A stretch of 64,000 nucleotides of DNA, from positions 810,449 through 874,448 of the forward strand of contig NMRA01000071.1 of assembly GCA_002633005.1 (NCBI GenBank), in the 5' to 3' direction. The DNA comes from Phoronis australis (taxonomy: Eukaryota; Animalia; Phoronida). How positions within the stretch are numbered: the first letter of the stretch is position 1; every line of letters starts with the position of its first letter. The notes below the pieces were generated by a model, which was not told where the DNA came from, did no database searches, and saw nothing but the letters and a program-made list of their open reading frames with translations. The translations under genes and the position numbers were made by a program. This document shows positions 382-56,107 of the stretch, piece by piece.

Positions 382-595
382 TGCTATGTAATTTATCGTG
401 TGGGTTTTATTGTTTTGGTATTGCCTAATTATTTTACTGATTATCTGTTGAGTGTTGGAAACATGATTTCACCTGACTGTTGCCACACAAGTCCATCTTC
501 TATGAAAAATGATGTTTTATTTAGACCACTTACCGTCAAATGAAACTGGTTTCCACTTATTGGTTACTCTCAGGATGAATAGTTCGTGGGTTTAA

Positions 596-1907
596 GGTTA
601 TCTCCAACCTGATTTAGTGGCCTCCATTCTATCTTGTATATCAAAAAAACTAAGCTTTGTCGACTAGTAAAAGTATATATTTTCTGAAAGAACAAAGACC
701 AGGAAATAAAAATATTCTTTTTATATTATGTTCCATTATTATTTTTACGTAAAAACCTTTTTTAAGTCAAAATTTCATTTTATGAAAGATACATACATAG
801 CAAAATAACCTCTCGGTCGATTTTAACGAAACCTTTTTTAAATGAAAACTTCACCTAACACTGTTAAGAATTTTGTATTTGAGTCTGTTTGGTTTCTACG
901 ACAAATCAACTCGCAAAACATAAGGTATTTTTGTAAAAAATTGAAGTTGTATTCGTCTTTTGTCACATTACGCAAAAACTAGGCCATTATGTCAAATATC
1001 CTAACAGCGTTTTTGAGATTGATGACTAAACATTAACTTAGGAAAGTTTCAGCGAAATCCATCGAGCCGTTTTTGAGAACTATTCCTAAGTTCAAATAAA
1101 GTCAATTTGCCGAAGCAGAGAAAAAGCTGATTAAACTGGGACAAGTGAAAATTTCAAAGATCTCGGTTAATTATTCGATGAAAACTTTTTTTCGGTAGAC
1201 GTAACCTTAACTAACGTACACTCGCAGTGTCAACTGATTTTGCAGTGCGTAACTAACTTAATTATCATTAAAACCTCATAGACTTATCATTCCCAGCCAA
1301 TTTTTATGTTATTTACAACCTACTTGCTAAGTAGGTCACAGCTCATTGCCTTTATACGTAACGTGCTGGGAGACTGATATGCAACCAAGTAAGAAATGGA
1401 TAACAAAAATCGAATCAGTGGTTAAAGTGTATCATTAGCATAAGATCGAAACATCGAAATGTCAACTTATTAATGGAATGAAGGAATTAGGGTGAGGAAT
1501 TTATTTCTTTTCAAAACTTGCTGTGTTCATGACTACAGAGGCCTGAGGCCACTCATGCCATTCATTTTCAACGCCATCGGTCGCACAACTCCCTTAGGAT
1601 AAAAAGGTACAGTTTGTCTTTGTTTTTCGCGGCGTCATTCTATCATAAGTACACCTCGTTGGCTCAATGTTATGGCGACTTTGTGAATGAAAGGACTGAG
1701 GGTATACGAAGATGTTCTGCACCTGGCGAAAGATTCGATTTAATTGAAAGCCCTTTGACCTTGGATAAGTAGTAAACAAATATCCACGCGGTTGTGCGGT
1801 TCCAAGGTGGTTCTGCTAAATCTTTTTTTTCTCGCTACGCCGTATGTATTTTGCAAGTGAAATATTGTAAAAATGGCCAATTTTTGTGAATAAGGTTTGA
1901 GATATCC
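596..1907. mobile_element. Non-autonomous TTAA-flanked DNA element (Kolobok-like)
   Basis: TTAA (592-595) GGTTATCTCCAACCT ... AGGTTTGAGATATCC TTAA (1908-1911): 15-bp TIR with 2 mismatches, TTAA flanks and purine-purine termini; no coding capacity seen. Confidence 0.6.
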
Positions 1908-1999
1908 TTAAGTAGCCTGGACTGTTGTGTATTGCTTAAGACCAGCATCCATGTGTAAAAAAGTGCTTGTGGTTGTCATTACTACAACAGGAATTATGG

Positions 2000-2085
2000 T
2001 CAACCTACTATTGACCTGTATTGACCTGTTGTTGACCTGTATTGACCTGTTGTTGACCTGTATTGACCTGCTGTTAACCTGTACT
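2000..2085. repeat. 21-bp minisatellite (attgacctgttgttgacctgt)
   Basis: About 4 tandem copies; explains the LLLTCID repeats of ORF 1927..2109. Confidence 0.85.
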
Positions 2086-2252
2086 TATAGTACCTTTCCG
2101 GATCCTTAGAAAACCGAAAAAACGACACGTCTGGGGTTGTCGTTATTTTTCATGGCGTATAAATGTCGGTACCATGCCTTTTGTTGAACGTGAGGTTGTT
2201 GTGCGTGCTCGTTTTATTGAATATTTATATATTTTCACGTTCGTTGACGTCA

Positions 2253-2320
2253 GCCACTGAGTGGTGCAGTTGTAAAGTCGACGACCTGAAACTCTTGCGG
2301 ATCGGGTTCGAAACTGGCCT
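2253..2320 (+). mobile_element. tRNA-derived SINE head (degenerate)
   Basis: A-box-like TGGTGCAGTTG (2262) and B-box-like GGGTTCGAAACT (2304) at tRNA-like spacing; no complete cloverleaf. Confidence 0.4.
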
Positions 2321-3274
2321 TGGTTTTCCGCCAAAATGTTATTTAACGCCGTTAGATATTAACTAAATGGGTTATTAAACGGTTATATTGGCCATTTAAG
2401 GCCGATATTGTGGTATAAGAAGTAATACCCCATATGACATTAAGTTATCTCATACGCTTCGAATTCCTGAGTTTCTCTCATTTTTTCGGCAGGGTTTCTA
2501 AATACTTCAATCAGACTGTTCATGTGGCGGATCACATCCTCTTGTAAAAGAACAGTTCTAAATGTAACGATTTATTGCTTGAAAAGAGATACATAAATAA
2601 ATATGAAAACAACGGTAACTGTGCTGTGAACTTGTTATGTCTCCTGAAAATAGTTAAAAAAACACAGTTACCGATGAATCGGCGCCTGAGTTTCAGACGA
2701 TATAATTTTTAGCAATGGAAAACTAAGACAGAAGTGTCATAATTAACAGTCCTGTTCCAGATGTTACGATTGGGACCTGAATGCATGTTGAGTGTTATTT
2801 ACACTCCTGCAATTGCATTATTGAAACTATTTTTGTGAAGTTTGATGATCGAACCGGCTAATGACGTCGAGTCGACATTGACCAAGCTTTTGAACTTTCC
2901 ATGTCAGAGGAAGTATTGTGGTAGGTTAGTATGGAAAACATTATTACATGACCGTATTGCACTCGACTGATTCAATGTGTATGAGATAATGGTCATCGCA
3001 TGGCATACTTCATGTAGAAGCTCTTTTGTGGGCTGAAATTCTGTTATGGGATATGAGCCCCAACCATGCATAATCCTATACCAGTGCTTTGAGCTCCAGA
3101 GGTATTCTTAACACATGGATGACTATACTTGAAAGTTATCTGGCGCAGAATAAGGTCAAAGTGCTGAACATTGTGCAGTGGTTGTGTTTTATTGGAATTT
3201 AAATTCCATTCATTAATCAATGCTGGGACTACTAGGTACAGATTCAACTTGAGACCAGACCATGGTTATTTTAG

Positions 3275-6200
3275 GTTATTTGAAGTACTTGGTTGGACAA
3301 AATGTGGATGGCCTACACCTCAGATCTGGTTTCCCTAGAAACAGAATGTCGGAGCTCCATGGCAACATGTTTGTTGAAGAGTGTGACAAGTGCTGTACTC
3401 AGGTACTGTAACCAACAAACTGTCTTAAACATGAAACTGTCTTTATTTACAAATTTGACCATGCTATTGTCATGCATAGTTTTAGTGCTGAAAATATCGG
3501 CACTGTTTACAGTCTTATCTGCCGAGGAAGGCACTGCTTGTTAAAGTTAAGTGATCAATCCACAGGCTTAGCACTGAAACCTGTGAGACTGACAGCATCT
3601 GTGAGGTTTGTAACACCAGTTGGTCTACGTGAGACTGACACAATCTGAGATTTGTAACACCAGTAAGGCCTACGTGAGACTGACTGAATCTGGGAAATTT
3701 TTATCACCAGTAAGGTCTACGTGAGACAGACACAATCTGAGANTTTACAGTCTTATCTGCCGAGGAAGGCACTGCTTGTTAAAGTTAAGTGATCAATCCA
3801 CAGGCTTAGCACTGAAACCTGTGAGACTGACAGCATCTGTGAGGTTTGTAACACCAGTTGGTCTACGTGAGACTGACACAATCTGAGATTTGTAACACCA
3901 GTAAGGCCTACGTGAGACTGACTGAATCTGGGAAATTTTTATCACCAGTAAGGTCTACGTGAGACAGACACAATCTGAGATTTGTAACACCAGCATACTG
4001 GTCTACGTGAGACTGACACAATCTGATATTTGTAACACCAGTAGGCCTACGTAAAACTGACGCAATCTGTGAGATTTATAACACCAGTAGATCTAAGTGA
4101 GACTGACACAATCTGATATTTGTAACACCAGTAGGCCTACGTAAAACTGACGCAATCTGTGAGATTTGCAACACCAGTAGGTCTAGGTGAGACTGACACA
4201 ATCTGAGATTTGTAATTCCAGCAGTCCCTGATGAGATTCAAATGAAGCAAGCTTGACGATTTATAGAATGTGGACACAACTGTTAAAAATTTCACATCTG
4301 CCAGTCAGCAAAAGTTGCAATGAACAATGGATTTTTCATCAATTAACTCAGGTTGCATAATACAAAACAAACAGATGGATTCAGTAAAGTCCCACCGCAT
4401 TTTTTCAAGATGAAAATTGCAAGTAGCTTACAAGCACCGTATGGTAAATTCTAGGCCAGAAAGCATTACATTTTGCTGTTTTAATTTGAAAATTGACTTA
4501 GTAAGAACAAAGTGGATCAAACTTTGTTTTCTGTACAACACCTTGATACAAATAAAAGTGTAAGGTTTTGTCACTTCTCGTCTCAGTGACCAATGGTAAT
4601 TTCAACTCCATTTGTGCATCAGGACATTTAACACCAGCATGAGATGATACAAATAAGATTGTTGAATTTCATCGACACTCGTCAAGCTCGATTATCAGTT
4701 TTATTCTTTTAGTGGTTGAAAGAGAAGTGCTTGAGGTCGTCAAGTTCATTGCGCAAAGCTTGAACTTCTGCCATTACCAGCTCCTCATTGGTTGGAGTTT
4801 CCGAAAGGCGTCTCTTCTCTTTGTTGTATTCAAACTTAAGTTTCCTCAGACGCTTGAGAAATTGTGTGTTCCGCACAATTTTAGTTTTGCCTTTTTCCTG
4901 CTCTATATATATGTCAAGCCAGTAGCCAATCAAATCATTGCATGGAACGATGGAACTGGCTATTAAATAAGTTGCATACTTGGCACTTATTTTGATCATG
5001 GTTTTCTTTTCCTCTCTGAGTTCATCCATTTCATCGTCCAAAATTTTCAGGATTGCCTCAGGGCATGCTCTTTCTTCTCTTTGAGATTTTTGTCGAACGT
5101 CTCGCATCGTGTCATTTCCAGAATATTCTGATTTGTGTACAGTATGTGTGTGATATTTACTGTTATCTCCATACATGGAACTTGTAAAGCCAGTACTATG
5201 TGACAGTTTTGGAACAGTTTGGTTTACAGTGTGGGTGTGGCCAAGACCAGCTGTTACATGTTCCATGCAATGTGTCTGGGTACACATTTTCGGTGACAGT
5301 GACAGGCCCTGTTGAGCCAATTCAGCACTCTCAGATTGGCGATCCTGTTCATACCGTGACAAATTAACACTCTTTGTTTGTGTCTCATGTTTTTCCTCCA
5401 ATACCTGCAGCTGAACTTCTATGCGCTTTAAAGCGTTAGCCAATGGACGACTCACATTCCTAATAACTTTGTGTACCTCATGCATAATGATGGTGTTGTT
5501 CACTTTGTGATGCACCATGCTGTTTGTCCGACCAAATAGTCGATCTGTTTCTGCTGCCTCTCTCTTCCATCTTTTCGAGCACTTTTCAATGCGCTCATCA
5601 GTTATACCCAAATCTTTGTAGCATTCAAGGACACCTCTGGCTGCATTGTTGTTAAAGCAGAAGACATTCTGATCGTTTGCTTTTATTCTTATTTTTTTCT
5701 CCTTGAACATTGAGTTTAATGTTGCTATCATCTTGCCAATATTGGTGGATGTCGAGCGAGCGTGTGTGAAACAGAAAACAATATTGTCTGCTGCAGAAGT
5801 TGGCAATAATGCTAGTAATTCCTGTAAACAGTATTGTTTCATTGCACTTACTCTGGCGGTGCCTTTCATTACTATGAACACACCGTGGATTTCTCGATAA
5901 TGACAGAGATGTGAGAGAATACTGTCTAATATCTTCCTGTCCTCTTGATGCCCCTTGGTGTCACCAATACCGGGAGTGTCTATCAGTCGAATGTTGTGGT
6001 CTCCCACGTGCACCACCGACACCAACACCTCCCGTGTAGCCACATATCCAGTGTTAAACTGATAAGAGGTCTTTGATGCCATAAACTTAGAGTCATTTTG
6101 TGAATTCATGGCAGCTCTCAAATCTTCAAACTCCAAATAGCTGGCAAAGCTGCGAATCAAAGTTGACTTTCCAACCCCTATTTCTCCCAGAACCATAACA

Positions 6201-9200
6201 TTCATTTCCTTCATCCTACCTTCAGGCAGTAGTTCGTCACGTAGATACTCGTCTGGGTACTGCACGTAGTCGAGACCATGTACGCCTTCATCGCATCGGA
6301 ATCCTGTTGACGCTGGGACAAACTCCCCACACTGACACTGGAGAGTGAATGTCTTCAGTCTGTACTGGACCACTTTCTTGCACTTTTCACATGCCCATGT
6401 GGCAGGCTTTACTGTGCATCCAAAGGATTTGGGACATCTGACATACAGCCATGCATTTCCTGCTTCTATATATCTGAATGGCTTTGTGCGGCTGTGTACA
6501 ACCAGACACAGCTGATTAATATCTTCATTACATCCAAAGTTGTTGCTGCACTTACTTTTCACCAGTTGCTGTAGGGAGACAAGCTCTGACTTGAGGATAT
6601 CACTTGGATATTTGATGTACATCAAGCCATGCACCTGTTCATTACACCTATACACAGATTCAGTCGGGGTTGACTGACCACATTTGCAATAGAACTTCTC
6701 AGTCTCCAGTCCAAACTCGACGGTTTCCTTGCATTTTCTACACTGCCATGTCTTGGTAGTGCATGGACACTGCAGGTGACCAGAAATGGAACTTGGACAT
6801 TTTAGTTTGGCCTTTGTCCTCTGACGTGGGTAATGTTGGCAGTAAATTGGCTCATGGTGTTTTATCAGGCACATACCAGCTTCACCTTTCTCTTTTGTGT
6901 ACAAATCAGCACAAGTGTTTGTTCCATTTTCAAATACTGCAATTCTTGGTTCTACATGTTCCGACTGCCAAAGGTCGGTTCGTATTTTCTCATCCACAAC
7001 TGCAAACATTGTGTCTTTTGGATGAGTGCTTAGTTTCTGCCACTGCAAAAAAAATTCTTGCACTTTCATCACTTGGTTTGTGCTCTCCTTTGGTTTGTAG
7101 AAGACGTATGCTAATGGGGCTGTACTGGGTACAAATTGATCTTTCTTTCCCAAGTACTCAATTCCTATGTTTTTCCAGTCTTGTGATTCGCTGACTTGGT
7201 TTAAGTCACTCTGGAACTTGGTAAGCTGTTCTTCATACTTGGCAAAGCTGGCTTGATGTGGCGCTTGAGTGGCCAAATGATCAAGTTCAAAAACTTGTGT
7301 TTCTCCGCGGCGTATTTTGGTGATTATTTCATGGAGGTTGCTTCTGTATATGGCTGTTTCTTCTGAAATTTGACCTACATAGTCATCTATAGCATCCAAT
7401 GTGTTGTCTGGTACAAGATGGCCTGAGTCTTGTAAATCTCTCTGGATGTCATACAGCCTTTGGGTTTTCTTTCTCATCCTTTCAAATGTTTGAGATGCTT
7501 TTGCTATCGTCTCTTCCTTTACTGACTCAAACGTTATTTCCAGTATGATATCTTGTTTGCAAATCTTGGCCACAGCTTCTAGTGGCATCATGGTATAAGA
7601 TTGAGGAACTCCCTTCCCGTCGTTCTGTTCTTTCACCACACTTGGGATGCTCCTAGCAAGTGCCACGGCTCCTTCAAATGTAGTAGGAATGTCATCTTTT
7701 GATGATACATCAGACGTGCACTTAAATGTAAACTTGACATTCGTTTCTGTATCAGTGGCTCCAGCGTTTACTTTCCCAGAGGCACTTGAGGAGATTAACC
7801 ATTTGAGTGCTTCAAGTTTGCCTGATATGGTCCCACTGGTTGATGTTTCATCTTTGTTTTCGTTGTCAGACGACTCGCATGTTATGGAACAGGTAGCGCC
7901 CCATTCAGTTGCAACAACCACGTGGGTGGCAGTCAGATCGCCTCTTTGAACAGCTACTAGGACACTTGGGTCAACATTTTCCTGATGGCGTCTGATGGTG
8001 TACTTGTCGTGTGCTGTTCTAATCTTGTATATAAGACTCATTTGTTGTGAGCGTGCACTCTTCTTTGTGTCTGTCAAGTAAGACAAGGAACCACTGCCAC
8101 TTAGAAAGCCTCCCATGATACTAAGCTTGAGTTCTCCTTCAATGCCAAATTTGTTGAGTTTCTCTTCTAAGCTGTCTGACTGAACTAGCACGATGCTAGC
8201 ACTGCCTAAGTCTGTGTGTTCAACGTCTTCACTAGAAACTGCCGTTCGTAGCAATGAGTCGCACTGAAATGACAAGTGGATTATTTATCACAAACTACAG
8301 TCATTTTCATGTATTATGGTCAAAAGATAGCCCAGTGACCCCACTGTTGTTCTTGTCAAAGAAGAGTTTGACCATAGAAGAGGATTCGTGTTCCCATGTC
8401 TCATACAGTCGTAGCTGATATGGGCGTTTTACTGATTGTACAGTCAGTCAGCTGTACACATTACAGGCAACTTGAAATTGTGCACAGGTTAGGAATAGAG
8501 TGAAAGTAATTACTGACATTTTGTATCAGCCTTCCAACATTTGTTTTGAGAAATTTCGCACAGTTAAGTGAGTAATGTTGCAGGGTTAAGTGGATATTGT
8601 GCAAAGAGTTAAATGTACATTATGCACAGAGTTACGTGGGTATTGTGCGCAGAGCTAAGTGGGTATTGTGCCTAGAGTTACGTAGGTATTGTGTGCAAAG
8701 TTAAGCGGATATTTTGTTTAGAGTTAAATGGGTTAATTGTGTGGGTATTGTGGGTAGAGTTAAGTGGATATTATGCACAGAATTAAGTAGGTATTGTGCT
8801 CAGAGTTAAGTAGGTATCCTGCTCAAAGTTAAGCAGATATTGTGTTTAGAGTTAAGTGGGTTAATTGGGTGCAGAGTTTTAACACTTAAAAGTGGATATT
8901 GTGTATGGAGGTAAGTGGGTATTGTGTGTAGAGTTAGGTGAGTATTGGGTGCAGATTTAAGTGGGCTGTGAGGGAGGAATTATATGCCACAAATTTGTTT
9001 TAAATTAATCATTATTGTGTCAGTTTTGTTATTGAGCTAACAGTTTCCATTTCAACCAGTGCAACGCCATTTACTCAGCTATGGGAAATATGTGGTTGCT
9101 CAGATATTTGGGTTCTAAAGTGCCAATTTCTCAACATTAGGGCTCAAGTTGTTATTTTGCAGAAAATCACTGAGATGTTTTTTAAGATTAGCAACACTTA

Positions 9201-12200
9201 ACCTGTTCTTGCTACTTTTCCTTAATATTGGTTTCTTAACATTATGTACAGTTACTAATGAAACTCATTGTCTGTCTTATGGAAACATTCCAAAAGTAAA
9301 ACAGTCCTGCTATTTCTATGATTATTATAGCACATATTTAATGTTGTGTGTCCTGATTTAGCAAGTTAAACTAATTACCACAAAACTCTCCGTTCTGACA
9401 TCGTACAAGTCACCGATGGTGGCCACCCTGTCCAGTGCTGCACGTGTTATCACTGCCTGAGACATAGTCTGTCTTTCTCTCTAAACCTTTAAAACACAAC
9501 CAGACACTTGTTTTATTATGAAATACATTTCTGATGCATTTTGCTTTAATCAAACACTTGCTTTTAAATCCTTTAAAGTGGCCTGGAACGCGTTAAATGA
9601 ACTAAAATGCAGTATTGAAAGTGGTTCACTGCCACTGAAACAGAGTTCAACGTCCTCGGCAGATATTTTTAGTTTTTATGTCAATATTTTAGATAAGTTT
9701 CTTTTGTTATCAAAGCATTTTTTTAGTTTCAAATTTCAAAAAATAAACGTTCTTTTAACAGCTCACCAATTCGTTGATTTTTATCCAAGGCAAGGCACGT
9801 CTCATTTGGATTGGCAAGAAGTTGACACGCCACATTTCCCTTATGGGTAAAATGTGACCTTTGACCACAAGCGACTTTAAGCAAGTGACTGTCTACACAT
9901 GCAGTGGGAGGTAGATCTGAAACTCTTTGCTCGTATTTCAAAGACCGTGAATTTTGTGATTTTTTCTGGAAATTTCCTCACAGGGGAAAGTAAATTACTC
10001 TTTAATAGACGTTGTGAGATGTAGTTTTGTTAGGAATTGGTTTAAAAGATATTTTTGATGAGCTTTCACGTTCCATACCTCTTTAAGGTAACACAATATT
10101 GAGTATGCTTGTTAAAGTAGGCATAGATATCTGCTGGTTCTGACCAAGAAAAGAATTTTAATTTAGACTGGGTGTAATAGTGTCTGTAACAGGCCCAGAT
10201 CAGTGGCTGTAATAGGCCCAGATCAGTGCCAGTAATAGGTCCATGTCAGTGGCTGTAATAGGCCCAGATCATTGCCAGTAATAGGTCCATGTCAGTGGCT
10301 GTAATAGGCCCAGATCAGTGGCTGTAATAGGCCCAGACCAGAGGGTGTAATATACCCAGATCAGTGCCATAATAGACCCATATCAGTGACTGTTGTAATT
10401 TGTTGAGGGTTAAAGTCTCCCCCTGTAACCTTCTATCATCACCACTTTCACTGTTGTGCCATCCCCTTGGTGGTAGTGCGCATCACTGACAATATGGAGT
10501 GAACGGTCTAACCAGACTATATAAAGAAATCACTAAAGTTAACAGAAGGGGTGATAATTACTCCCTCCTCTCCTGATTTCTCCTTCTTGGGCTTCCGATG
10601 GTATCAAAATCCTTTCAGTGGGGCTATTCGGAAAATTCTCTTTGCGGTGTCGCTGCTGTACTAGCGGTGAGTGAATTGCGCATGCATCGCTGTCTGCATG
10701 TAAACAGCTGGTAAAAAGAGGGATTGTTATCAAAATACGTCGTCGCGCTAAGCCTTATTATTGCTATTTTCCGTGGTGCAAGTCTTCGACAGGTGGTCAC
10801 AAATTCATAAAAGACCTATAGTTACTACATTCGTGGAGAACTGCAGTCAATAGGGTCAACCAACTGACAAAGTGTGGATGGCAAAGCCCCATTGGGAGAC
10901 TACGTAATGTTACTTGGTAAGTTTTTAGCAATCATGTTTCTATTGACATCGTTCGGTGATGTTATCCCCACCAGTTACCCCACTGAATAACAGGTTTATT
11001 GAATGGAACTAAGTGTTTCTTTTAGAAAACTCACCAGGGACTCTGATGCCGGGTAGGACAGCAGCACATATTCACGTATTGTCTCGGGTGGGAATGCACC
11101 CAATTTAAGAGATTATGGTACGTGAAGAAGTCAGGGGTGACTTTTTTCACAGCAGTTTCTCTTCAAAGCTATGCTATGTCCAATAAAATTCTCTAGATGA
11201 GTGAGTTTCCTTATTGTATTGCAGACCCCATCCCCAGGACTACCAGATTAACTACTGAATTAATATGAATAAGCTATTCAGTAAACGTCGTAACATTGCA
11301 CTGGAATAAAAATTGACACCTAGAATGAATGTTACTCGTTGAGGTCAGAAGCACGTTTTGTTTAACCACTTTTAGCCTGTTTCACATATTTTAATCCAGA
11401 TCTTAAATAAGACTTGGGTTCAAAGATTATTAGTTTCTACTTATCAAGGCTTGGAATTTTCCGCGGAAACGCAGATTTCCTGTTTTTTCAAATGTTCTGT
11501 CTGCGTATTTTATTGTATTTCTGCGTAAAAAATCAGATTTGATATAAAATTTCCACGGCAATTTTCTTTCTTACCGCGGCGTTGCCGGCGACTTTCACCT
11601 CAAAAAGCGGAAGTTGCTCTTTATGTTTCGGAGGAACGTAAATTGTCAACATTGCCGGGGCATCTGGGATAGCGTGGTGGATTTTTCAATGGCGACTTGT
11701 GTGATTGCAAACCGTGGTGACAAATACTAGGACTCTGCAGCCAAAAATGTATGGAGGTGGGAGTGGACAGATGAGCTAAAAAGACACAGAAGCATGCTTC
11801 TCTGGGGGTGGTACCATTTTTTTTTAGTCCTCCCGAGTTTTGTCAGCAAAAGGTCCACATCAACTATTTCAAGGCTGGGAAGCGTGCATGTTTTGGGCCG
11901 TAAAAATTTCCACTTTTTTGTCATTGATCATTCCAAGCCCTAACATGTAAACATGAAGATGAAACGTCAAGTATGTTCTGCCTTACTAAAGTATTTTGTC
12001 TTGTTTTTTGTTCTATAATTTGCTAATATTCCTCTGACTATTCTGTTACAGGTGAGAAAATGACTGAAACCAGCTGCCTGACCTTTGGACAAAGTGAAAA
12101 GCAATTCTTCAGGGCCTTGACATGCCTGATTATGGACTCCTTTGCATGGGAATATTACAATTGTTTTTAACAATGTTGTTTCTTTGTATGTATGTGGTTG

Positions 12201-15200
12201 TTCAGTTTGCCACTTTGTTTTTTAAATACACTCACTGATAACAGTTTATTCTCGAATCTTGTGCATAGCAGATTCTTATCCAGCTAGCTACAATTGAAAA
12301 CATACTTTTTTGCATGTGGAACTTTTCTTGCAGACAAGTTGACACAAAACTTAAAAGCTCTTAAAATAACCACACACACACAAACAAATCAAATGCAAAC
12401 AAAGGGAATACTTCATTTTGATCGCTGCATATTTCTAGAGGTCAATAGGAAAATTGCAATTCGCAAGCGTAATCGGTAATCATTTCAGCTTTAAAAAGAA
12501 TAAGCGCAACTGCAGTGCATGGGGCTTAAAAACTGAGGAAATATTGTGGTTTCAATTATTAGTGACAAACTTTTCTGTTGATGAAAAATTTATTTGATCA
12601 TCAAAATGTAACATTAACGGGCTTTCTACTGACAATAAGATAATCGATGCAGTCACTGAATGTCATTTCCCCATAATGTGTACCAAATTGAAAAGTTTTT
12701 GCCATTAGTATAAAGCCTTTCTTCTGAAAGGAAAAGTTAATGTCACTCAGTGAGAAAGGACAGGTATGTATACCAGATGCTTTTGGTTTTCATTTTACAG
12801 GGATCTAATTTCAATGGCCTATAGAAGCGCTTGTAAAAAAGGCCCAGTTTCGGCACATGGCTTTCCTTCATGTAACCTCATTCAGCCTCAATAACATCCA
12901 CAATTAGATCCTTGAAGATAAACACAACAGCATATCACTTGACTTGTTTTGTGCCCAAAATCTGACCCTGAACTCGACCAGAGTTTCACTAGGTCTTCTT
13001 CAGCTTCAATCCCCCAAGTTCCTTCCAGGAAAGGAAATAAGCTATTGTCCACACATGACTTATTGCCTATGAAAGGGCATCCTCACCAACGAGGATGACT
13101 TGTGTAGCTGTCAGATATAGTTCCTCTTCATACACAAACAATCCACTGGCACGTTGTCTTATGGTAACTTCGCACTGCGATTCACATTTCTCCAGGGCCA
13201 CTGACTTGTACATTGTGCCATGCAGCACTGCTGATGTGTAGAAAGCTGTGGGAAGAGAAAGGAGTAACAAAGCTTGTCTATGTTGCGGCTTGAAGTGGCC
13301 TTAAAATGTCACTGAACTTGGAACAAATATTGAAATATGAATAATTAAGTACTCCAGGTTGGGTCAAAAATGCTACCCCTGTTTTTAAAAATATGATATG
13401 GTGACTGCTCTACAATTTCACACAAAATTGAACAATTACTATTTTCAGAAAGCAAGGGTGTATATAATAAGTAGTGCATAAAACTGCATCATTGTTTTCA
13501 TTTGTAGCCATAACAATTCTTTACACTTGTCTGCAAAATATGGAAGTTTTTGAGACAACTTCAAACCTTTATTACCCATTTTCAAGCCTTTATATTTTGA
13601 TACTTTCAGCATTTTTATACTCCGATTACAGATTCATGGGCCAGTCAAGCATACTTCTAGTCTGAGGGAACCGTTTCCCAGACTTTATTTTTTTCTAATA
13701 GAAGATATGAAGACTTGGGTCATTTAAAAAATGATTTATAATCTTTCTGTTGTTTAAGAGTTCACCATCAAAAATGCAATTTTCACAAAAATGGCTGTCT
13801 TGAATTTATAAACGACTTGCAACATTTCAAGGCATGAGTTAAGACTATTCATTCAATGAGAATTCAGAAAAAATATATTTTTATGCTTTTATGATTGATA
13901 GCAAAACAGTTTCATGAAATAAACTTGAAGGAACTTCATGAAGGTTAAGAATTACCTCACCATGCTATTTCCCCCAGACACTATTACCTGTTATTTCCAA
14001 ACATTCAGTTGCACCAAATTTTACAACCCCAACCCCCTATGCCAATCCCGCTTAACGACTGAATGAGTATATCAAAACGATTAACATACCTTTCTTTAAA
14101 TGTAGCTGTTCCTTTTCAGAGGCTTTGCTCGTTGTCTCCGATATAGAAAGTAGGCTCTGACAACAGATCTGCACTGGATGGGAAGATCTTGCTGGTTAGC
14201 TGCAGTCATCTGCTTAAAACAAATTTTTGTCCATTCAGGGATGGTACTGAAGCGATGCATATCTCCTCTGCACGGTACAAGCCCTCAAACCTATAAACCA
14301 AAGGTCATGTGAAAACAGATAGATTTCCATTTCAACGTGTAGTACATTTCCAGAAGACACAAGATAGGGAGTAAACAAATAGTCTAATGGATATTTGCCA
14401 CATACCCTTTGACATGGCATTGGACTTGGATTGTAATCTTAACTCACAAACTAATATCGAGTTAACAGCATAAACATTCAGCATTTGTTGATGTAACTGT
14501 CACTGCAGATAAACATGTTAGAAATCAATCCAAACAATAATACTGCTTTGATGTACGAAAAGATCCCGAGTTCTACATCAAGTATCGTAACACACATCAC
14601 AACAAAGATCAACCACACTGGCAACTGCCACGAAGTTGACATCGGTGAGTACCTCTGTTAACAGGCATCAGTAGAATAAACATGGAAAAATCGTTAAAAT
14701 AATCACAAACCTTACCTTTGTATAAGGTCGTGCCTACTTCCTCTCATAGAGGCACCCTTTTCACGCAATCTCTGATTCCGTTGGCGCGACTGCAAACCAT
14801 TTCACCATGTATTTAAAGGGCTCGCGAAATTGAGGCTGTTAATCTATCACCTCTAGTACACACGCGCCCTCTAGTTAATGTAAATTTTCCGAATAGCCCC
14901 ATTAGAAAACTATGGACTTTACAAACCATTTAACATATACAAGAAATTGTGATGTTTGTAAATGTTAAACTGCTGTGTAAGCAGTGAAGCTGAGTAGCCT
15001 ATTATGTGAGGTATACTCAGTTAAATTACAAAATTCTTAACTACTAAGCAGACAATAGACCAAACTTTTGACTATAAGTATGTACTAAACTAGCCCAAAT
15101 CACACTCAGGTTGACTTTATGTATGTACTACACTAGCCCACTGTACCACATCACACTGGTTTCATATTCACAAATGCTATATCCTTTGCTCACATTCTCA

Positions 15201-18200: not shown

Positions 18201-21200
18201 TTAGAAAATATTGTAGTGGTTAAACACCTATTAGAAAACATTGTGTGATTCTTGTTTGCAGACAGAGGTATGGTCTGCCTGAGAATGTGAATATATTTTC
18301 ATTGCTACACCAGAGATTGACTTCATAGTATTTAGTGCAGAAAGTGAACCATTATATCCAGACTTTAACTATAAAACAGAGCACTTAAGTGAAACATGAG
18401 CAGAAACATCTCTTCAAAAGTAAAAGAAAAAAACAAGAACAAATTCATACGATGATAACAGGAGAATAATATGTTATGTGAATATGACATTCTAAGTGTT
18501 CATGGTTGTGAGTTTAGCCAACGGGCTATGTTGACTTAAAAGGCCATTAAAAGGCTCTGGAACATTTTCTAATTTTGGCCAAATTTTTGTATCCATTGGA
18601 CTTTATTTTAGAAGTCCATGCCATGTAAGTAAGAATATCACTGAATCATTCACTTGGTTGCTAAGTCTTCTTCTAGTGCCCTAGGTGGCGGATTAGACTT
18701 TGAATTTCATTTTCTGTAGCAATTAAATTGTTTTGCATGCAGAGTAGAAGTTGTTGCCTTTACTCAACCAAATCCGTTAGAGTGCCTTAAAAACTCTTGA
18801 ATTCCAGTTTTTAAGAGGTGTAAGACTCAAACTTGAATATAGTGGCCAAAAACCCACTACAGCCACACACAACACCATCACTACAGCCATACACAACACC
18901 ATGACTACAGCCATACACAACACCATCACTACAGCCATACACAACACCATGACTACAGCCACACACAACACCATCACTACAGCCACACACAACACCATGA
19001 CTATACAGCCACCCATACGAAAAAGAAAGTGAGAATCTCACTGGATTCCAGTTAGATTCCAGTTAGATTCTCACTAAATCACCAATTATAGTTAGAAATG
19101 CCAGTGAGAACCCAGTGGGAATTGAACAACAGGGGCAGTCAGTGAGATTGAGTGAGAAAATGTTATGTAACAGTGAGAATCCAGTGAGAATTTTGGTCTT
19201 ACAAAAATTCTGAGTGAGAATCAGTGAGAATTTCAGACTTAGGAAAAATCTGAGTGAGAATTGAGTGAGAATTTGGACTTGCCAAAATTGGAGTGAGAAT
19301 TCAGTGAGAATCTGAGATAAACAAACACCCTGATTGGCTGTAACTGTAGAAATTTCAGTTGAACCAGATTTCTGAATTCAAACTAAAATGGCTTCAGGAA
19401 TGAGCAGTTGGAGAAATGGCTTGAAGATTGTTGATGTTTTTCTCACAAATATTCTGAAATTACTGAACAGTTTGTCTGCAAGTCAACCACAGGTGATCCT
19501 GGACTGATTTTGCGTGTTAATAAACTTAAGGTTAGTACATTTCATACATGTAGTAGAGTGCATGAAGCACCAGTATTAGGCTGATGTCTTCATTCTGTGC
19601 ATGTTGACAGCTGAGTTTTCAGTATTTTGCTGATTCACCAAAGGCATTATAGTTATTATTTTATGTCTGCTATATTTCACAATTAGCAATTATTAAATTG
19701 TATCCTTAGTCAAAGTTCAAGATAAACTCACAAAAATAAGCAGTGTTTTGGTTACCAAAAAGGTTTGATCTCGATTCTATTCAGTCAGTGGCTGAAAAGG
19801 CACACAAAATTTTCTAAGTTCAAAATTCTCACCCAGTGAGATTTTCAGTGAGAATTTCATTAACACAAATTCTCACTAATTTGCATAGCATTCCTATTGA
19901 GTGAGAATTTCAGTAAGACAAATTCTCACTGAGTGGGAATGCTATGCAAATTAGTTAGATTCTCACTGAATTCTAACTGGAATATCACTGTATTCTCACT
20001 AGAGTGAGATTTTTTTTCTCACTAATTTAAATGGCATCTTAATTAGTTAGATTCTCACTGGAATCTAACTGGAATCCAGTGAGATTCTCACTGGCTTTCG
20101 GGATTAGAATTTCCTGAAGCCAAAAAAGGGCACTCACAACACTGATCACTACAGCCACACACAACACCATAACTACAGCCACACACAACACCATCACTAC
20201 AGCCACGCGCAACACCATCACTACAGTCACACGCAACACCATCACTACAGCCACACACAACACCATCACTACAGCCACGCGCAACACCATCACTACAGTC
20301 ACTCACAACACCATCACTACAGCCATACACAACACCATCACTACAGCCACACACAACACCATCACTACAGCCACGCACAACACCATCACTACAGCCACAC
20401 ACAACACCATCACTACAGTCACTCACAACACCATCACTACAGCCATACACAACACCATCACTACAGTCACTCACAACACCACCACTACAGCCACACACAA
20501 CACCATCACTACAGCCACTCACAACACCATCACCTCCGTGTTGAAATACAGCACTGATGACATCATTCCCAGACACATTACACACTTGTTCACATGTTCA
20601 CCACCCACCAGTACTCTTATTAGGGAGACGATTCAACCACCCCATGCTGTCAAGTTCTCAAATATTTGGCTTTGGTGGTTGTCGGTGAATGATGCAGTGA
20701 GACAAGTTAATGTCGTCGACTTTTCATCTAGTGCGCCAGTCTCTTAAAATCGCATTTCCTTGACTGTTGATCAATTCTTAGGAGTATACCTTTAAAACTA
20801 TCTCTAGTGTCGTTTTTGAAAAAAACGTTTTGTTGTGATGTTTTGGAATGGGACCCTTTGTTGTCATGGCATTCCTATTTAGACATGTTTAAAGACTGGC
20901 AAAACTCGGTCTTGGTTTATTTCAGTTTGAAGTGTGCGATTTTTGCTTGACCTAATGAGTGCTGTCTGATGTTTCACAAGCTGATGTTCATTTGTTGTAT
21001 TGCAGTACGTGCGTTCTCATGCAGTGTCCACTATGGGTCTGAAGTATACAGGAAATGTATGTAACCAGGGCAAGTCAAGGGGGCGGTGCAGGTGAGTCAA
21101 TACTTAATCATCTGTGTCATTGTGATTGTCACTGACAACAGATATGAGGTGATGGATTCGTCACTTGGTGAACGACAGATAACTTACGTAGTACTCTTAA

Positions 21201-53229: not shown

Positions 53230-53326
53230 TGCCTATCAACCGCAAGTATTCTCTCACACATGCAGTAGTATCGCGTGGAATGAGTACGCTGTATGTCATC
53301 TCACGATGTATTGAAGACTTTTGCTT

Positions 53327-56107
53327 ATGTTGCTAATCTGCTTAGCCGTGCGAATTAGCGTTGCTTCCTCATCAGGATGCGAAAAACCTGTTACGGTATT
53401 GACCGGAAAGTTTATGGAAAAGTATTGGGGTAGAAGTTTCATCATTTTGGACAACTGTGGAATTCAGCAAATTGAACAAGGTGCATTCTCACCTGTGCGA
53501 GATCATACAGTAAGCCTAACTATTTCAATGAACAACTTGACCACTCTCGATGACGGATCCTTCGAGCAGTTAACAAACCTACAATTTTTTCGTCTGGACA
53601 GTAACGCCATCATGCGCCTCTCAGAGAGATCATTTGAAGGTCTTACTTCTCTACTCAGTCTGGATCTCAGAAATAACAGAATAAGTTTTATTCCAGATCA
53701 TGTCTTTTCTCCACTGCATTCTCTAAAATCCCTTGAAGTTCAGGCAAACAAGTTAAAAAGTCTACGCCGTGCACAGTTTAAAGGGTTAAGAGAGCTCCAC
53801 AGCTTGTCGCTAGCTTTTAATGAGTTGTCTCACGTCGAACAAGGCGCTTTTGAAGACTTGAGGGAGCTTGTTGATCTCGACCTGTCTCATAATGGTTTAC
53901 TTTCTATTCCGCCTGGTTTATGTCACGATTTACCGAGTCTGCGTTCACTGGGTCTGAGTAATAACCAAGTACGATCTCTTCATCGGTCGCCATTCCGGGA
54001 GTGCAATTCTTTAGTCATTCTGGCACTTGATGAGAATCGAATAGACGAATTACAACAAGACAGTCTGGTGGGTCTTGACGTCATGGAACGGCTTAGTATT
54101 GCAGGAAATGGCATGACGAAAATACATGACTCTGCCTTGAGTTCAGTAGTCAAGCTGAACGTTTTACTTCTAGGACGTAACAATTTTTTTAACTCATTGT
54201 CCAAATCAACGTTCGCGGCTGTCCGTCACCTTGAAGTATTATACTTACACTCGAGCAATATTTATGAGTTACCAGAAGGGATTTTCAAAAACCTTTCATC
54301 TCTGAACTTAATTGTTCTCAGTGAAAATAAGATGACAACCTTGACTGGAGGCATACTATACGGACTGTCAAGTTTAACTGACTTAATCGTCAGTAATAGC
54401 AGCTTATCATATGTGGACTTCAATACATTTCAGCAAACAGAGAATCTCAAAAAGCTGGATATTTCTTACAATAATTTAACAACAATGTTTCATGTTCCAG
54501 AAAGTTTAAGAGCTTTGGATATTCGCGGCAATACCTTGTCTTTTATACCACGTGACGCATTCTTCGATCGAACTTTGGATGTTTTAAGAATTGAGACGAG
54601 ACAGCCTGAGGTCTTCCCCCCTATACATGTGAGCTCAACTCTGGAGATCTTTCTACACACAATAAGCGACAACAGTACTTTTCAAAAGTCAATTTCTGCC
54701 CCGGTTATTCACATCTACTACCTTGGAAGGAGAGATGTTACTGTTGGTCGTACATTTCTAGAAAACATTCAAGGCTTGGATATGAACTTGAACGGGATGA
54801 AGATTCGACGGATAGAAAGTCACGCGTTTTCTCATCAAACTACGGTGTATTCTCTCAGTCTCAACTCGAATAGGCTAACAATAATTTTTGCAGCGATGTT
54901 TTTTGGACTTGGAAACCTCAAAAGAATTGATCTGTCCAAAAACAGCATACACCTGATAGAGTCTGGTACTCTGGAAGCCCTACCCAACCTTACGTCATTG
55001 GTTTTAAGCGATAATAAATTGAGAATTCTTGATCAACATATGCTGACGTCTAACTCTCTGACATTGGCCTTTTTTACATCCAACTTGATCGAACACGTGG
55101 AAGAGGCTGCTTTTCAAAGACTCCCAAACTTGGAGATGTTAAGTTTGCACAGCAATCGGTTGCTTTACATTGATTCAGCAATGTTCAAGAACGCTTCGCG
55201 TTCAATTCGTCAACTCAACCTGGGGCACAATATGATTCAGCAAATAGAACCCGGTGCCTTCAACAACCTCGTAAATCTCAAGCAATTGTCACTGACAAAC
55301 AACCGGTTAATGACCATCCAGACTAAGGTGTTTGGCAACTTGAAGAAACTTGTATCAATTCGACTTTCCCATAACGAAATTGAATTCATAGCCGAAAACG
55401 CGTTACCGCAAGCTATGCAAGTAGATATATCATACAACAAATTGCGATCGATTTCAATTTACAGTTTCCAGAAAACTGCCGGCACGACATCAACGAAACC
55501 GATGGAGCTTTTGTTCGCGGGAAACCCTCTCCACTGTAACTGCTTTCTACGGCCTCTTCAGGAACTTCTAAAGAACGGATCTCTGAAGTTTTTACGAAAC
55601 AGCAATCGAGTTTGTTCCACACCTGCCACTGTAACTATGCGGAATTTCACTTCTTCCAACCTAACTTGCCAGAAACCAGTTTTCACCAGCTTAGCAATAA
55701 TGAGGGAGGCCGAGGTTGCTACTATCGAGTGTGTGTTTTCCGGAGACCCTCCTCCCGAAGTTCATATTCAAAACTTGCCCAAACCAATCTTGAATGTTTC
55801 TAGTCATTCCTCCTATCCCTACAGTTCAATAAAAGTCGCCGTCAACGCACTTGATATGCAGCTGCCTCGCGTTAACGAGTATTTGTGTGAGGCAGAAAAC
55901 ACGATGGGTTATGCCGTCTTCAAAATGGGAAAGTCTCAGTCGTTTACCAAGAATGCAGAAGGCGTGAGATACATTGGCGAAGGAGTCGAAATTGCTCTCA
56001 TCGTCTGCGCAACTGGTTTTGTTGTTTCCTCCGTTGGCCTCGTTCTGGCTGTTGTTTACATCAAGCGGTTGATTATGAGGCGTGAGGTGAAAGAGAGTTC
56101 TACGTAA
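53327..56107 (+). CDS. Intronless leucine-rich-repeat / Ig-like single-pass membrane protein (926 aa)
   Basis: Signal peptide MLLICLAVRISVASS; more than 20 extracellular LxxLxLxxNxL repeats; LRRCT NPLHCNC..C..P..C; Ig-like ATIEC...YLCEAEN; TM IALIVCATGFVVSSVGLVLAVVYI; 14-aa tail. Confidence 0.92.
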   Translation: MLLICLAVRISVASSSGCEKPVTVLTGKFMEKYWGRSFIILDNCGIQQIEQGAFSPVRDHTVSLTISMNNLTTLDDGSFEQLTNLQFFRLDSNAIMRLSERSFEGLTSLLSLDLRNNRISFIPDHVFSPLHSLKSLEVQANKLKSLRRAQFKGLRELHSLSLAFNELSHVEQGAFEDLRELVDLDLSHNGLLSIPPGLCHDLPSLRSLGLSNNQVRSLHRSPFRECNSLVILALDENRIDELQQDSLVGLDVMERLSIAGNGMTKIHDSALSSVVKLNVLLLGRNNFFNSLSKSTFAAVRHLEVLYLHSSNIYELPEGIFKNLSSLNLIVLSENKMTTLTGGILYGLSSLTDLIVSNSSLSYVDFNTFQQTENLKKLDISYNNLTTMFHVPESLRALDIRGNTLSFIPRDAFFDRTLDVLRIETRQPEVFPPIHVSSTLEIFLHTISDNSTFQKSISAPVIHIYYLGRRDVTVGRTFLENIQGLDMNLNGMKIRRIESHAFSHQTTVYSLSLNSNRLTIIFAAMFFGLGNLKRIDLSKNSIHLIESGTLEALPNLTSLVLSDNKLRILDQHMLTSNSLTLAFFTSNLIEHVEEAAFQRLPNLEMLSLHSNRLLYIDSAMFKNASRSIRQLNLGHNMIQQIEPGAFNNLVNLKQLSLTNNRLMTIQTKVFGNLKKLVSIRLSHNEIEFIAENALPQAMQVDISYNKLRSISIYSFQKTAGTTSTKPMELLFAGNPLHCNCFLRPLQELLKNGSLKFLRNSNRVCSTPATVTMRNFTSSNLTCQKPVFTSLAIMREAEVATIECVFSGDPPPEVHIQNLPKPILNVSSHSSYPYSSIKVAVNALDMQLPRVNEYLCEAENTMGYAVFKMGKSQSFTKNAEGVRYIGEGVEIALIVCATGFVVSSVGLVLAVVYIKRLIMRREVKESST

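Follow-up and report, generated by a model that had tools for sequence, protein, structure and literature searches.

The 64-kb window, that is, the whole stretch of Phoronis australis DNA analysed here, carries on its minus strand a gene of two exons that join in phase 0 and total 1213 codons (Table 1). The first-pass annotation had described an intact frame of this length with one coding intron, and this description held: exon 1 is followed by GTAATT and exon 2 preceded by TTTCAG, giving GT/AG ends in phase, and exon 1 is backed by homology, its tblastn match to the sea-star relative P0008 reaching 65.5% over 29 residues and running on into exon 2. The called proteins of nine relatives start at the equivalent exon boundary and lack the exon-1 motif, as is expected from a shared intron. 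The 9379-8263 junction, proposed earlier for checking in RNA, yielded no spliced read in any of the three raw-read runs. All five stonustoxin/neoverrucotoxin motifs named in that annotation occur in the translated protein and follow the stated order. The predicted lack of a signal peptide agreed with a crude hydropathy test, in which exon 1 had no hydrophobic signal-like stretch, and with 0 of the 71 family members tested carrying one. Neither a second family copy nor a tail remnant was found within the window.

Table 1. Features of the Phoronis gene, with positions in the window.
Feature	Position	Strand	Basis
Exon 1, 29 codons (87 nt), start of MACPF/CDC domain	9379..9465	-	sequence; tblastn with four relatives
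Intron, phase-0 GT-AG, 1115 nt, containing a 23-bp minisatellite (8557-8965)	8264..9378	-	sequence
Exon 2 (3555 nt), open frame of 1184 codons plus stop	4709..8263	-	sequence
SNTX-type MACPF/CDC domain (with exon 1); two helical bundles where membrane-inserting hairpins sit	7571..8263	-	Pfam PF24674, PDB 4wvm, model secondary structure
Helical (FAT-like) domain	7193..7570	-	segment layout, model; inside the 1-465 match to 4wvm_B
DUF7656, alpha/beta domain at the position of the stonustoxin thioredoxin domain	6875..7177	-	Pfam, layout, model, fold match
Cys-rich domain copy 1, predicted Zn-binding; 16/17 family-conserved positions kept	6569..6856	-	column conservation, layout
Cys-rich domain copy 2, old internal duplication, ligands kept	6230..6457	-	layout, repeat comparison
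GTPase of the Toc34/GIMAP/septin clade; G1 (6187-6164), G2 Thr and G3 (5980-5969) cores kept	5492..6214	-	Pfam, fold matches, alignment
Homopolymer in GTPase domain; run X1 contig (depth 4.65) with one-base insertion, possible frameshifted allele	5691..5692		single low-depth contig, may be error
First stalk helix and eroded Cys/His domain DUF8206, low model confidence	5090..5491	-	alignment, layout, model
Second helical stalk; 4991-5031 is the alignment site of the expressed sister gene's reads	4724..5089	-	layout, reads
AATAAA hexamer just 3' of the stop codon, possible poly(A) signal	4700..4705	-	sequence

The N-terminal half was compared with known proteins by sequence and by predicted structure. 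Pfam searches identified MACPF_SNTX (PF24674) with an E value of 1.2e-14 and 54.6 bits against a cut-off of 27, and DUF7656 at E 1.1e-3, below its cut-off, and the closest PDB sequences were stonustoxin alpha and beta (E 4e-19 and 1e-15). Supportively, Foldseek ranked stonustoxin first, with GIMAP7/GIMAP2 next, and residues 1-465 of the structural model superposed on residues 11-504 of stonustoxin beta (4wvm_B) with a Z score of 18.5 and an rmsd of 4.1 A over 371 aligned residues, a continuous fold match that places helical (FAT) and thioredoxin domains after the MACPF/CDC domain. The MACPF/CDC region was modelled with sheet and helical bundles at a pLDDT of mostly 78-92; both hairpin-forming regions have a family-normal length, many small residues and a beta-amphipathic pattern. 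Within the four N-terminal segments (MACPF, helical, DUF7656 and Cys domain), 41 of 45 family-conserved columns are kept. Sequence, Foldseek and model superposition thus agree with the stonustoxin-type N-terminus proposed at first reading.

In the accessible text of PMC10566576, SNTX proteins have a four-domain layout. The Phoronis protein resembles stonustoxin alpha/beta (4wvm) and fish SNTX-like proteins in carrying the MACPF/CDC, helical and thioredoxin-position domains in order, and differs from stonustoxin in that no Pfam match to PRY/SPRY was found at E<=1, Cys-rich domain(s), a GTPase and a stalk standing in its place, and in its size (~1200 vs 700 aa). The likeness in sequence and fold, together with a sea-cucumber relative automatically named neoverrucotoxin subunit beta, would fit a venom or defensive toxin secreted like stonustoxin. 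That reading is extremely improbable: PRYSPRY is absent, there is no secretion or venom sign, the relatives reach far beyond fish to venomless fungi, amoebae and bacteria, and expression is near background. Moreover, a GTPase and the predicted Zn domains require the cytosol.

The first-pass annotation had also noted two Cys-rich repeats, and both are present. They share 35 of 97 residues and 10 Cys/His, and their identity by codon position is 0.45/0.61/0.41, the second positions being most alike. The doubling is not a family trait: it is private to the Phoronis gene (1 of 220 proteins), and the relatives have a single such domain and, typically, the different DUF8206. No fold for the Cys-rich domain or DUF8206 appeared among the matches listed, the whole-model lists being filled by the G domain.

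For the GTPase domain, the assignment to the GIMAP/Toc34/septin clade was confirmed by Pfam AIG1 (E 2.8e-6, 27.3 bits against a cut-off of 27), by a Foldseek match to GIMAP7 (E 1e-8) and by the fold scores of model residues 688-935 (Toc34 Z 16.6, GIMAP2 Z 15.5); MMR_HSR1 matched at E 3.8e-6. A septin proper was rejected, as the Septin profile stayed below its cut-off (E 3.4e-5, 23.7 bits < 26.2, profile positions 4-80 of 280) and septins ranked below Toc34/GIMAP in the fold searches. In the family, one identical G1 octapeptide occurs in 71 of 74 matches, which indicates that the GTPase is strongly constrained there. The Phoronis copy keeps 53 of 86 family-conserved positions of the domain, including the G1, G2 and G3 cores as well as the arginines conserved behind G3 and within the G4 region; in the G4/G5 region several family-invariant residues are changed and others kept. 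The earlier claim of intact G1 and G3 therefore stands for the cores, but the remainder of the domain ranks with the most eroded of the family. A dead pseudo-GTPase was not adopted as a description, because the G1-G3 cores are kept.

Beyond the G domain, DUF8206 gave no profile match and retains 4 of 14 conserved columns, although its remnants align. The C-terminal tail is 3 aa long, vs at least 30 aa in 109 of 114 members (family median 62 aa), and the last 30 residues are basic in 92 of 114 members. In a typical member, the C-terminal module is predicted to fold as a single confident unit (pLDDT 86, pTM 0.81). Since the DUF8206 remnants align, and given its placement in the tree, the Phoronis copy is by descent a derived member that lacks DUF8206 and the basic tail.

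The family itself comprises 433 clusters at E<=1e-30, and one fixed eight-segment layout is found in 114 of the 219 relatives retrieved, from an octocoral, echinoderms, rotifers, nematodes, fungi, Dictyostelium and a small bacterial clade. Neurospora, Aspergillus, Dictyostelium purpureum and sea urchin carry members, and local expansions occur, with eight sea-star entries on one scaffold and three Dictyostelium entries on one contig. This range, patchy across kingdoms, and the local clusters suggest immune-like evolution. Similar fusions had been anticipated in other invertebrates and fungi; they were found, and the range is far wider, including amoebae and bacteria. A separate observation is that Dictyostelium Q54QA1 (1199 aa, uncharacterised, Z 7.5), listed in a table of PMC8986115, has the family's length. 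In FastTree phylogenies with SH-like support, unrooted or midpoint-rooted and used without any claim on the direction of transfer, the Phoronis copy was nested among octocoral and echinoderm members (36-45% identity, support 0.997-1.0), with a branch length of 1.05 vs 0.03-0.21 in its sister clade. An order-wide search returned one strong and one weak match in 401 bacterial genomes, so that the family is rare in bacteria and the neighbourhoods of its genes there are barely sampled; the GTDB pattern scan gave 2 of 600 matches listed. One weak G-domain match was obtained among 81 candidate viral contigs, no family match on plasmids, and 0 of 70 in a first metagenome scan.

The first-pass annotation had proposed that PRYSPRY was replaced by Zn repeats plus a GTPase. 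Because the family reaches amoebae and bacteria, the reverse is more likely, the GTPase-bearing form being old and the PRYSPRY form a fish derivative, as judged from distribution rather than from a rooted test. The SNTX branch was reportedly defined by Ellisdon et al. 2015 (PNAS). That paper may list such fusions; the titles and abstracts searched, with subscription journals outside their scope, contained no functional account of the fusion, in line with the earlier statement that none was known.

The divergence of the Phoronis copy is distributed unequally along the protein. Near-invariant columns are kept at 19 of 19 positions in the N-half and 40 of 61 in the C-half, the lowest C-half retention of 131 sequences; a Fisher test on conserved columns gave p 1.5e-5, which is indicative only, the columns being taken as independent. 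In neutral simulations of substitutions only, in which indels would lower survival further, the C-half remained stop-free in 0 of 2000 runs at 67-70% retained identity, corresponding to the observed excess divergence, and in 28 of 2000 at 85%. The C-half was eroded in a gene whose frame remained open. A long-dead pseudogene kept open by luck, which low RNA, unconstrained-looking variants and the C-half erosion itself could indicate, is largely refuted by these simulations and, with an N-half free of erosion and intact splice sites, is very improbable.

Present use of the gene is doubtful. Same-species RNA of unspecified tissue and challenge state, of which 18-19% of each run was read, never exceeded a depth of 1 in any gene bin of the three runs, in either orientation. 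A sister gene is expressed, with 14 same-sense reads and a contig of depth 47.8 that have family-typical flanks, paralogues being visible through read flanks only. Among 16 coding variants, most of them from contigs of low depth in a single sample and counted without a control gene, 4 were synonymous and 12 non-synonymous (pN/pS 0.8, neutrality not rejected, p 0.45), and in the C-half the ratio was 7 non-synonymous to 1 synonymous. The possible frameshifted allele lies outside the coverage of the second DNA run. Given the eroded regulatory half, the near-silent RNA and the unconstrained-looking variants, the Phoronis copy illustrates a GTP-switched effector poorly.

A high pN/pS also fits diversifying immune genes, and the Cys ligands retained in both repeats and the retained G1-G3 cores speak against a fading gene. 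The copy could instead be a working specialist, inducible and diversifying, that serves as sensor, decoy or second subunit. It would co-assemble with the typical sister protein, in the way that stonustoxin alpha pairs with beta, and detect a pathogen product by means of the duplicated Cys domain and the remodelled GTPase. The open frame survived heavy divergence, the pore module is wholly conserved, the nucleotide-phosphate motifs are retained, the Cys duplication is old and maintained, a sister gene exists in the same species, three other members (P0112, P0161 and P0083) likewise combine an eroded C-half with a normal N-half, and stonustoxins are described in the accessible text of PMC10566576 as two-subunit proteins. 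Against this stand the near-background RNA in all three runs, the C-half variant ratio and the possible frameshifted allele, and we consider such a role possible but rather unlikely.

The closest proteins are themselves uncharacterised. The Phoronis protein belongs to the same family as the MACPF_SNTX, DUF7656, G domain and DUF8206 proteins named 'G domain-containing protein' in UniRef, and differs from typical members in its doubled Cys domain, its eroded G domain and the loss of most DUF8206 ligands and the tail. SNTX-FN3-septin/AIG1 fusions of fish and Daphnia type (P0077-P0080) share the SNTX-type N-half (probability 100, E 1.5e-39) and a C-terminal AIG1/septin-like GTPase, whereas they have FN3 repeats instead of the Cys-rich domain and another G1 sequence, and are likewise uncharacterised. 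GIMAP/AIG1, Toc33/34 and septins share the G-domain fold (Z 15-17) and a helical extension, but are small or have CARD/HINT-type partners, at only 13-18% identity. The lancelet AIG1 genes are expanded, dispensable defence genes, with no MACPF fusion mentioned in the accessible text (PMC12373286).

Another comparison is with the interferon-induced very large GTPase GVIN1/VLIG-1, an immune GTPase with a MACPF-like predicted structure (Z 12.3 in human, 11.7 in rat and 7.9 in mouse; S1 table, PMC8986115), which differs in having ~2400 aa and two GBP-like large-GTPase domains vs 1213 aa and one Toc34/GIMAP-type G domain; GVIN1 was absent among the sequence relatives retrieved. GVIN1 is described in the accessible part of a preprint as antibacterial and coating cytosolic bacteria, and the main text reports this coat with no occurrence of MACPF or pores (10.1101/2025.03.24.645074). 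MACPF folds can be non-lytic, with scaffold roles, according to the accessible part of PMC8986115. The family might accordingly be non-lytic, a MACPF ring serving as scaffold and GTP driving a coat on microbes or organelles, as with GBP1, GVIN1 coats or dynamin-like remodellers. GVIN1, a MACPF-fold match described as a coat protein, is one precedent; the G-stalk module also matches bacterial dynamin-like proteins, mitofusin and GBP-type proteins more weakly, and a cyanobacterial contig and tandem forms show it without MACPF. This remains improbable, as both hairpin regions have the features of their family noted above and, among relatives with a solved structure, the nearest forms lytic pores.

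We give an even chance to the reading that the gene is an intact, strongly diverged member of a widespread, undescribed family whose members would typically form GTP-controlled defence pores inside the cell, the Phoronis copy being a once-specialised spare under relaxed selection. Its starting points are the domain order, folds, family range, asymmetric erosion and expressed sister gene documented above, and its mechanism draws on folds and analogy. At rest, the protein would be a soluble, self-inhibited monomer in the cytosol, which the basic tail and Zn-tipped stalk would recruit to a membrane, be it that of a microbe, of a microbe-holding vacuole or the cell's own. GTP-driven pairing of G domains is known for Toc34, GIMAPs and septins; GTP binding could likewise pair the G domains here and so concentrate the MACPF/CDC domains, which would form a ring and insert a beta-barrel, leading to death of the microbe or infected cell. 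GVIN1, which matches the MACPF fold and is reported to coat bacteria in the cytosol, provides a precedent for such logic. After duplication, the Phoronis copy would have retained the pore module and phosphate-binding core and doubled the Cys domain, whereas its base-binding side, the Zn domain of its stalk and its tail would have disappeared at a time when the gene was still translated; it may now be rarely transcribed and drifting.

More tentatively, and with a chance short of even, the family may be an overlooked immune executioner common to bacteria, amoebae, fungi and animals, combining Zn-domain sensing, a GTP switch and a perforin-type pore in one chain; it would be ancestral to the stonefish toxin through a trade of GTPase for PRYSPRY, and the copy in the window would show the spin-off of remodelled sensor or helper subunits.

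Perforin-type pores are activated by proteolysis, acid, calcium or partner subunits. If the proposal is true, a GTPase in the same chain would be a different principle of control for them. Pfam already lists each of the domains separately, and the Phoronis copy is the weakest family member for study; the fusion, however, is old and large, keeps one layout and occurs in tractable organisms, and is therefore testable at once. The main text of a 2025 review of fungal cell death does not mention MACPF, perforin or GTPase. The family would supply fungi and amoebae with candidate effectors of cell death, give the stonustoxin branch a likely ancestral role and parallel human GVIN1.

Reading the window gene as two exons (table below) gives the same 1213-aa total that had been claimed for it. 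At the level of sequence comparison, exon 1 is confirmed as real by relatives: it has a 65.5% match over 29 residues in the protein P0008 and less strong ones in P0026, P0035 and P0052, each of which runs on into exon 2. Nine relatives are called from the equivalent exon boundary and lack the exon-1 motif, which fits an intron held in common. The region 4097-9571 is covered by one single-copy DNA contig that differs at 15 letters and by a single gap, which rules out an artefact of assembly at this locus. High-copy repeats lie at 9520-12500, starting ~55 bases 5' of the initiation codon; the DNA depth in them is 400-11700 vs. 4.65 in the window gene, and they draw many RNA reads originating from other repeat copies. 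Elsewhere in the window, the product of a single open frame of 930 aa has the appearance of an unremarkable LRR-Ig receptor of the cell surface. A 24-bp minisatellite at 20131-20533 yields several overlapping open frames, and a weak beta-flower Pfam match there was rejected as a spurious product of the minisatellite.

Features of the window and of relatives' proteins (P-numbers) and DNA loci (L-numbers)
Feature	Position	Strand	Size	Remarks
Exon 1, window gene	9465-9379	minus	29 codons	
Exon 2, window gene	8263-4709	minus	1184 codons	
Intron between exons 1 and 2		minus	1115 nt	GT-AG, phase 0
Open frame in window	53315-56107	plus	930 aa	many leucine-rich repeats, Ig domain, hydrophobic C-terminal segment
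G-stalk-DUF8206-tail protein without MACPF	L001:4743-6848		701 aa	Nostocales genome bin
Doubled or tandem G-stalk-DUF8206 forms	L009, L012, L014, L020			proteins P0141, P0159, P0163, P0180, P0185

Pfam profiles placed MACPF_SNTX on the window protein (E 1.2e-14), with DUF7656 under the cut-off, and the AIG1, MMR_HSR1 and Septin profiles all fell on its single GTPase; stonustoxin alpha and beta were the only strong PDB sequence matches. An AlphaFold2 model built from a 20-sequence alignment (mean pLDDT 70; residues numbered in the 1191-aa exon-2 frame, P0001) had high pLDDT at residues 10-570, 690-970 and 1075-1185, and dropped below 50 across Cys repeat 2 and residues 972-1073. The first-pass annotation had predicted a MACPF/CDC fold at the N-terminus, and model residues 1-465 indeed superposed on stonustoxin beta 11-504 with Z 18.5 (rmsd 4.1 Å, 371 aligned); the GTPase also proved GIMAP-like as proposed, residues 688-935 matching Toc34 (Z 16.6) and GIMAP2 (Z 15.5). 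Foldseek ranked stonustoxin first, followed by GIMAP7 and GIMAP2. PMC10566576 describes stonustoxin as MACPF/CDC, FAT, thioredoxin and PRYSPRY; three of these four domains are present in the window protein, whereas PRYSPRY is replaced. The fusion as such is neither stonustoxin nor septin nor GVIN.

The same architecture is widespread. One search of 7991 candidates gave 78 matches, and 74 of these were of fusion-family type, coming from animals (octocoral, sea star, sea cucumber, brittle star, urchins, rotifers, nematodes, springtail, mite and fly) and from Rhizophagus, Glomus, Terfezia, Neurospora and Dictyostelium. A representative search counted 433 clusters at E ≤1e-30, a figure that rises to 1429 at 1e-10; the best 150 were retrieved. 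Using family-built profiles, the order MACPF-helical-DUF7656-Cys-G-stalk-Cys/His-stalk was found exactly in 114 of 219 relatives, the others being mostly shorter pieces of the eight-segment layout; the Cys/His domain is Pfam DUF8206. A basic C-terminal segment was present in 92 of the 114 members, and no signal-like stretch was found in the 71 family members tested. A typical C-terminal module, that of P0099, was modelled from a 60-sequence alignment (pLDDT 86, pTM 0.81) as a G domain, a long helix, a long beta-hairpin with the Cys/His domain, a second long helix and a helical bundle, and its G domain was nearest to Toc33/34 and GIMAPs, with septins and dynamin-like proteins matching more weakly. 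Family genes also occur in local clusters: a single scaffold carries eight sea-star entries, and a single contig carries three from Dictyostelium. G-stalk-DUF8206 units without MACPF were found doubled within a chain or in tandem genes, where the regions on either side are unassigned. In a second clade, the N-terminal half of the family is followed by FN3 repeats and then by an AIG1/septin-like GTPase (P0078); fish (catfish) and Daphnia names on P0077 and P0080, neighbours within this SNTX-thioredoxin-FN3-GTPase type (P0077-P0080), suggest that the pore/GTPase pairing persists into vertebrates.

Bacteria also carry the family. WP_321486095.1 of an uncultured Draconibacterium (1229 aa) contains all eight segments, and its cluster representative sits on a 5.27-Mb contig; a Dolichospermum planctonicum fragment falls in the same 90% cluster as full-length 1200-aa proteins. 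The full-length members P0236/P0087 (Draconibacterium) and P0222/P0036 (cluster with Dolichospermum) are bacterial or probably bacterial. The Nostocales protein at locus L001 is 60-62% identical to full-length members, and the genes around its own are plainly bacterial. It is transcribed divergently from an HTH-NB-ARC-TPR gene and belongs to a run of small genes of unknown kind that includes a beta-flower ORF, with a PIN toxin gene nearby; the region resembles a defence locus, here in a filamentous cyanobacterium. Bacterial members cluster together (support 1.0), adjoining the marine-invertebrate clade that contains the window gene, and are rare, with one strong match among 401 genomes of the order of that genome bin. 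PMC12107551 discusses horizontal movement of stonustoxin-like genes, which it treats as defence genes of fish. Because of its wide range, rather than from a rooted tree, the GTPase-bearing form is more likely to be ancestral to the PRYSPRY form of fish.

Within this family the window copy is unusual. Among 220 proteins it alone has two Cys-rich domains, and the repeat recognized earlier holds up, 35 of 97 residues being identical with 10 Cys/His in common; the likeness is greatest at second codon positions, and the duplication is accordingly an old one that has been maintained. Conserved columns were compared with 130 full-length relatives (1050-1450 aa; four FN3-type or unrelated matches left out). 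The window protein kept 19/22 columns in MACPF, 5/5 in DUF7656 and 16/17 in the Cys domain, but 4/14 in DUF8206 (median 14); at 93% conservation it kept 19/19 in the N-terminal half vs. 40/61 in the C-terminal half, the lowest C-terminal retention among the 131 sequences. Of the claim that G1 and G3 of the GTPase are intact, the cores stand, G1, G2, G3 and two conserved arginines remaining, but the rest does not, since only 53/86 GTPase columns are kept vs. a median of 82.5, a level equally low in 2 of the 130 relatives. What has been lost lies in the insert preceding G2, in the G4/G5 region, in the first stalk and among the Zn ligands, and the tail is 3 aa vs. at least 30 aa in 109/114 members. 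Relative to tree length, the branch of the window gene is about twice as long in the G domain (0.92/14.2) as in the N-terminal half (0.81/24.9). In neutral simulations at this divergence the frame stayed open in 0/2000, indicating that the C-terminal half was reshaped during continued translation. P0112, P0161 and P0083 have a normal N-terminal and an eroded C-terminal half; such remodelled copies may recur in the family.

Present use was assessed in RNA from three runs that carry the same species label; the 11.0-12.8 million records taken per run amount to 18-19% of it. Across the window gene, depth was ≤1 throughout, with reads in both orientations, and the predicted 9379-8263 junction gained no RNA support, no intron-spanning read being found in the three runs. 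Under looser matching, 14 of the 23 reads mapped from run X5, sharing a single orientation, aligned at 4991-5031 with <90% identity, as did a contig of depth 47.8 from run X8. Translation of their flanks gave residues typical of the family, indicating that a sister gene under the same species label is transcribed more strongly. DNA-sample contigs gave 16 coding variants, 4 synonymous and 12 non-synonymous (pN/pS 0.8), two of which recur in RNA reads from another sample; the synonymous to non-synonymous counts were 3:5 in the N-terminal and 1:7 in the C-terminal half, neutrality not being rejected (p 0.45). One contig carried a one-base insertion in a homopolymer within the G domain. This pattern, of small numbers and with no control gene, is compatible with relaxed or diversifying selection. 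That the window copy is instead a working sensor or helper subunit appears unlikely, and is less favoured than a fading paralogue.

Taken jointly, that the family is a cytosolic GTP-licensed pore-former and that the window copy is a once-specialised paralogue now fading has, in our judgement, an even chance. G domains of Toc34, GIMAPs and septins pair on GTP. From the folds, domain order and conservation shown here, we infer that the tail and stalk of a family protein would bind the target membrane, its G domains would likewise pair upon GTP, and the MACPF/CDC domains clustered by this pairing would insert a barrel. The best precedent found is GVIN1, whose human, rat and mouse proteins are MACPF-like fold matches in the S1 table of PMC8986115, a likeness absent from the main-text GTPase passage of that paper and from the main text of the GVIN1 preprint (10.1101/2025.03.24.645074). 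The preprint reports GVIN1 as a coat on cytosolic bacteria and mentions neither MACPF nor pores in its main text, so a non-lytic coat is still a live alternative to the pore.

The component domains are known and separately catalogued, and the fusion is present in databases as 'G domain-containing protein'; it was undescribed in our literature search, whose coverage left out Ellisdon 2015 and its supplement. The interest lies chiefly in the family and less in the window copy, and the family protein may be likened to a perforin of the stonustoxin branch on which an immune-GTPase control module would act.
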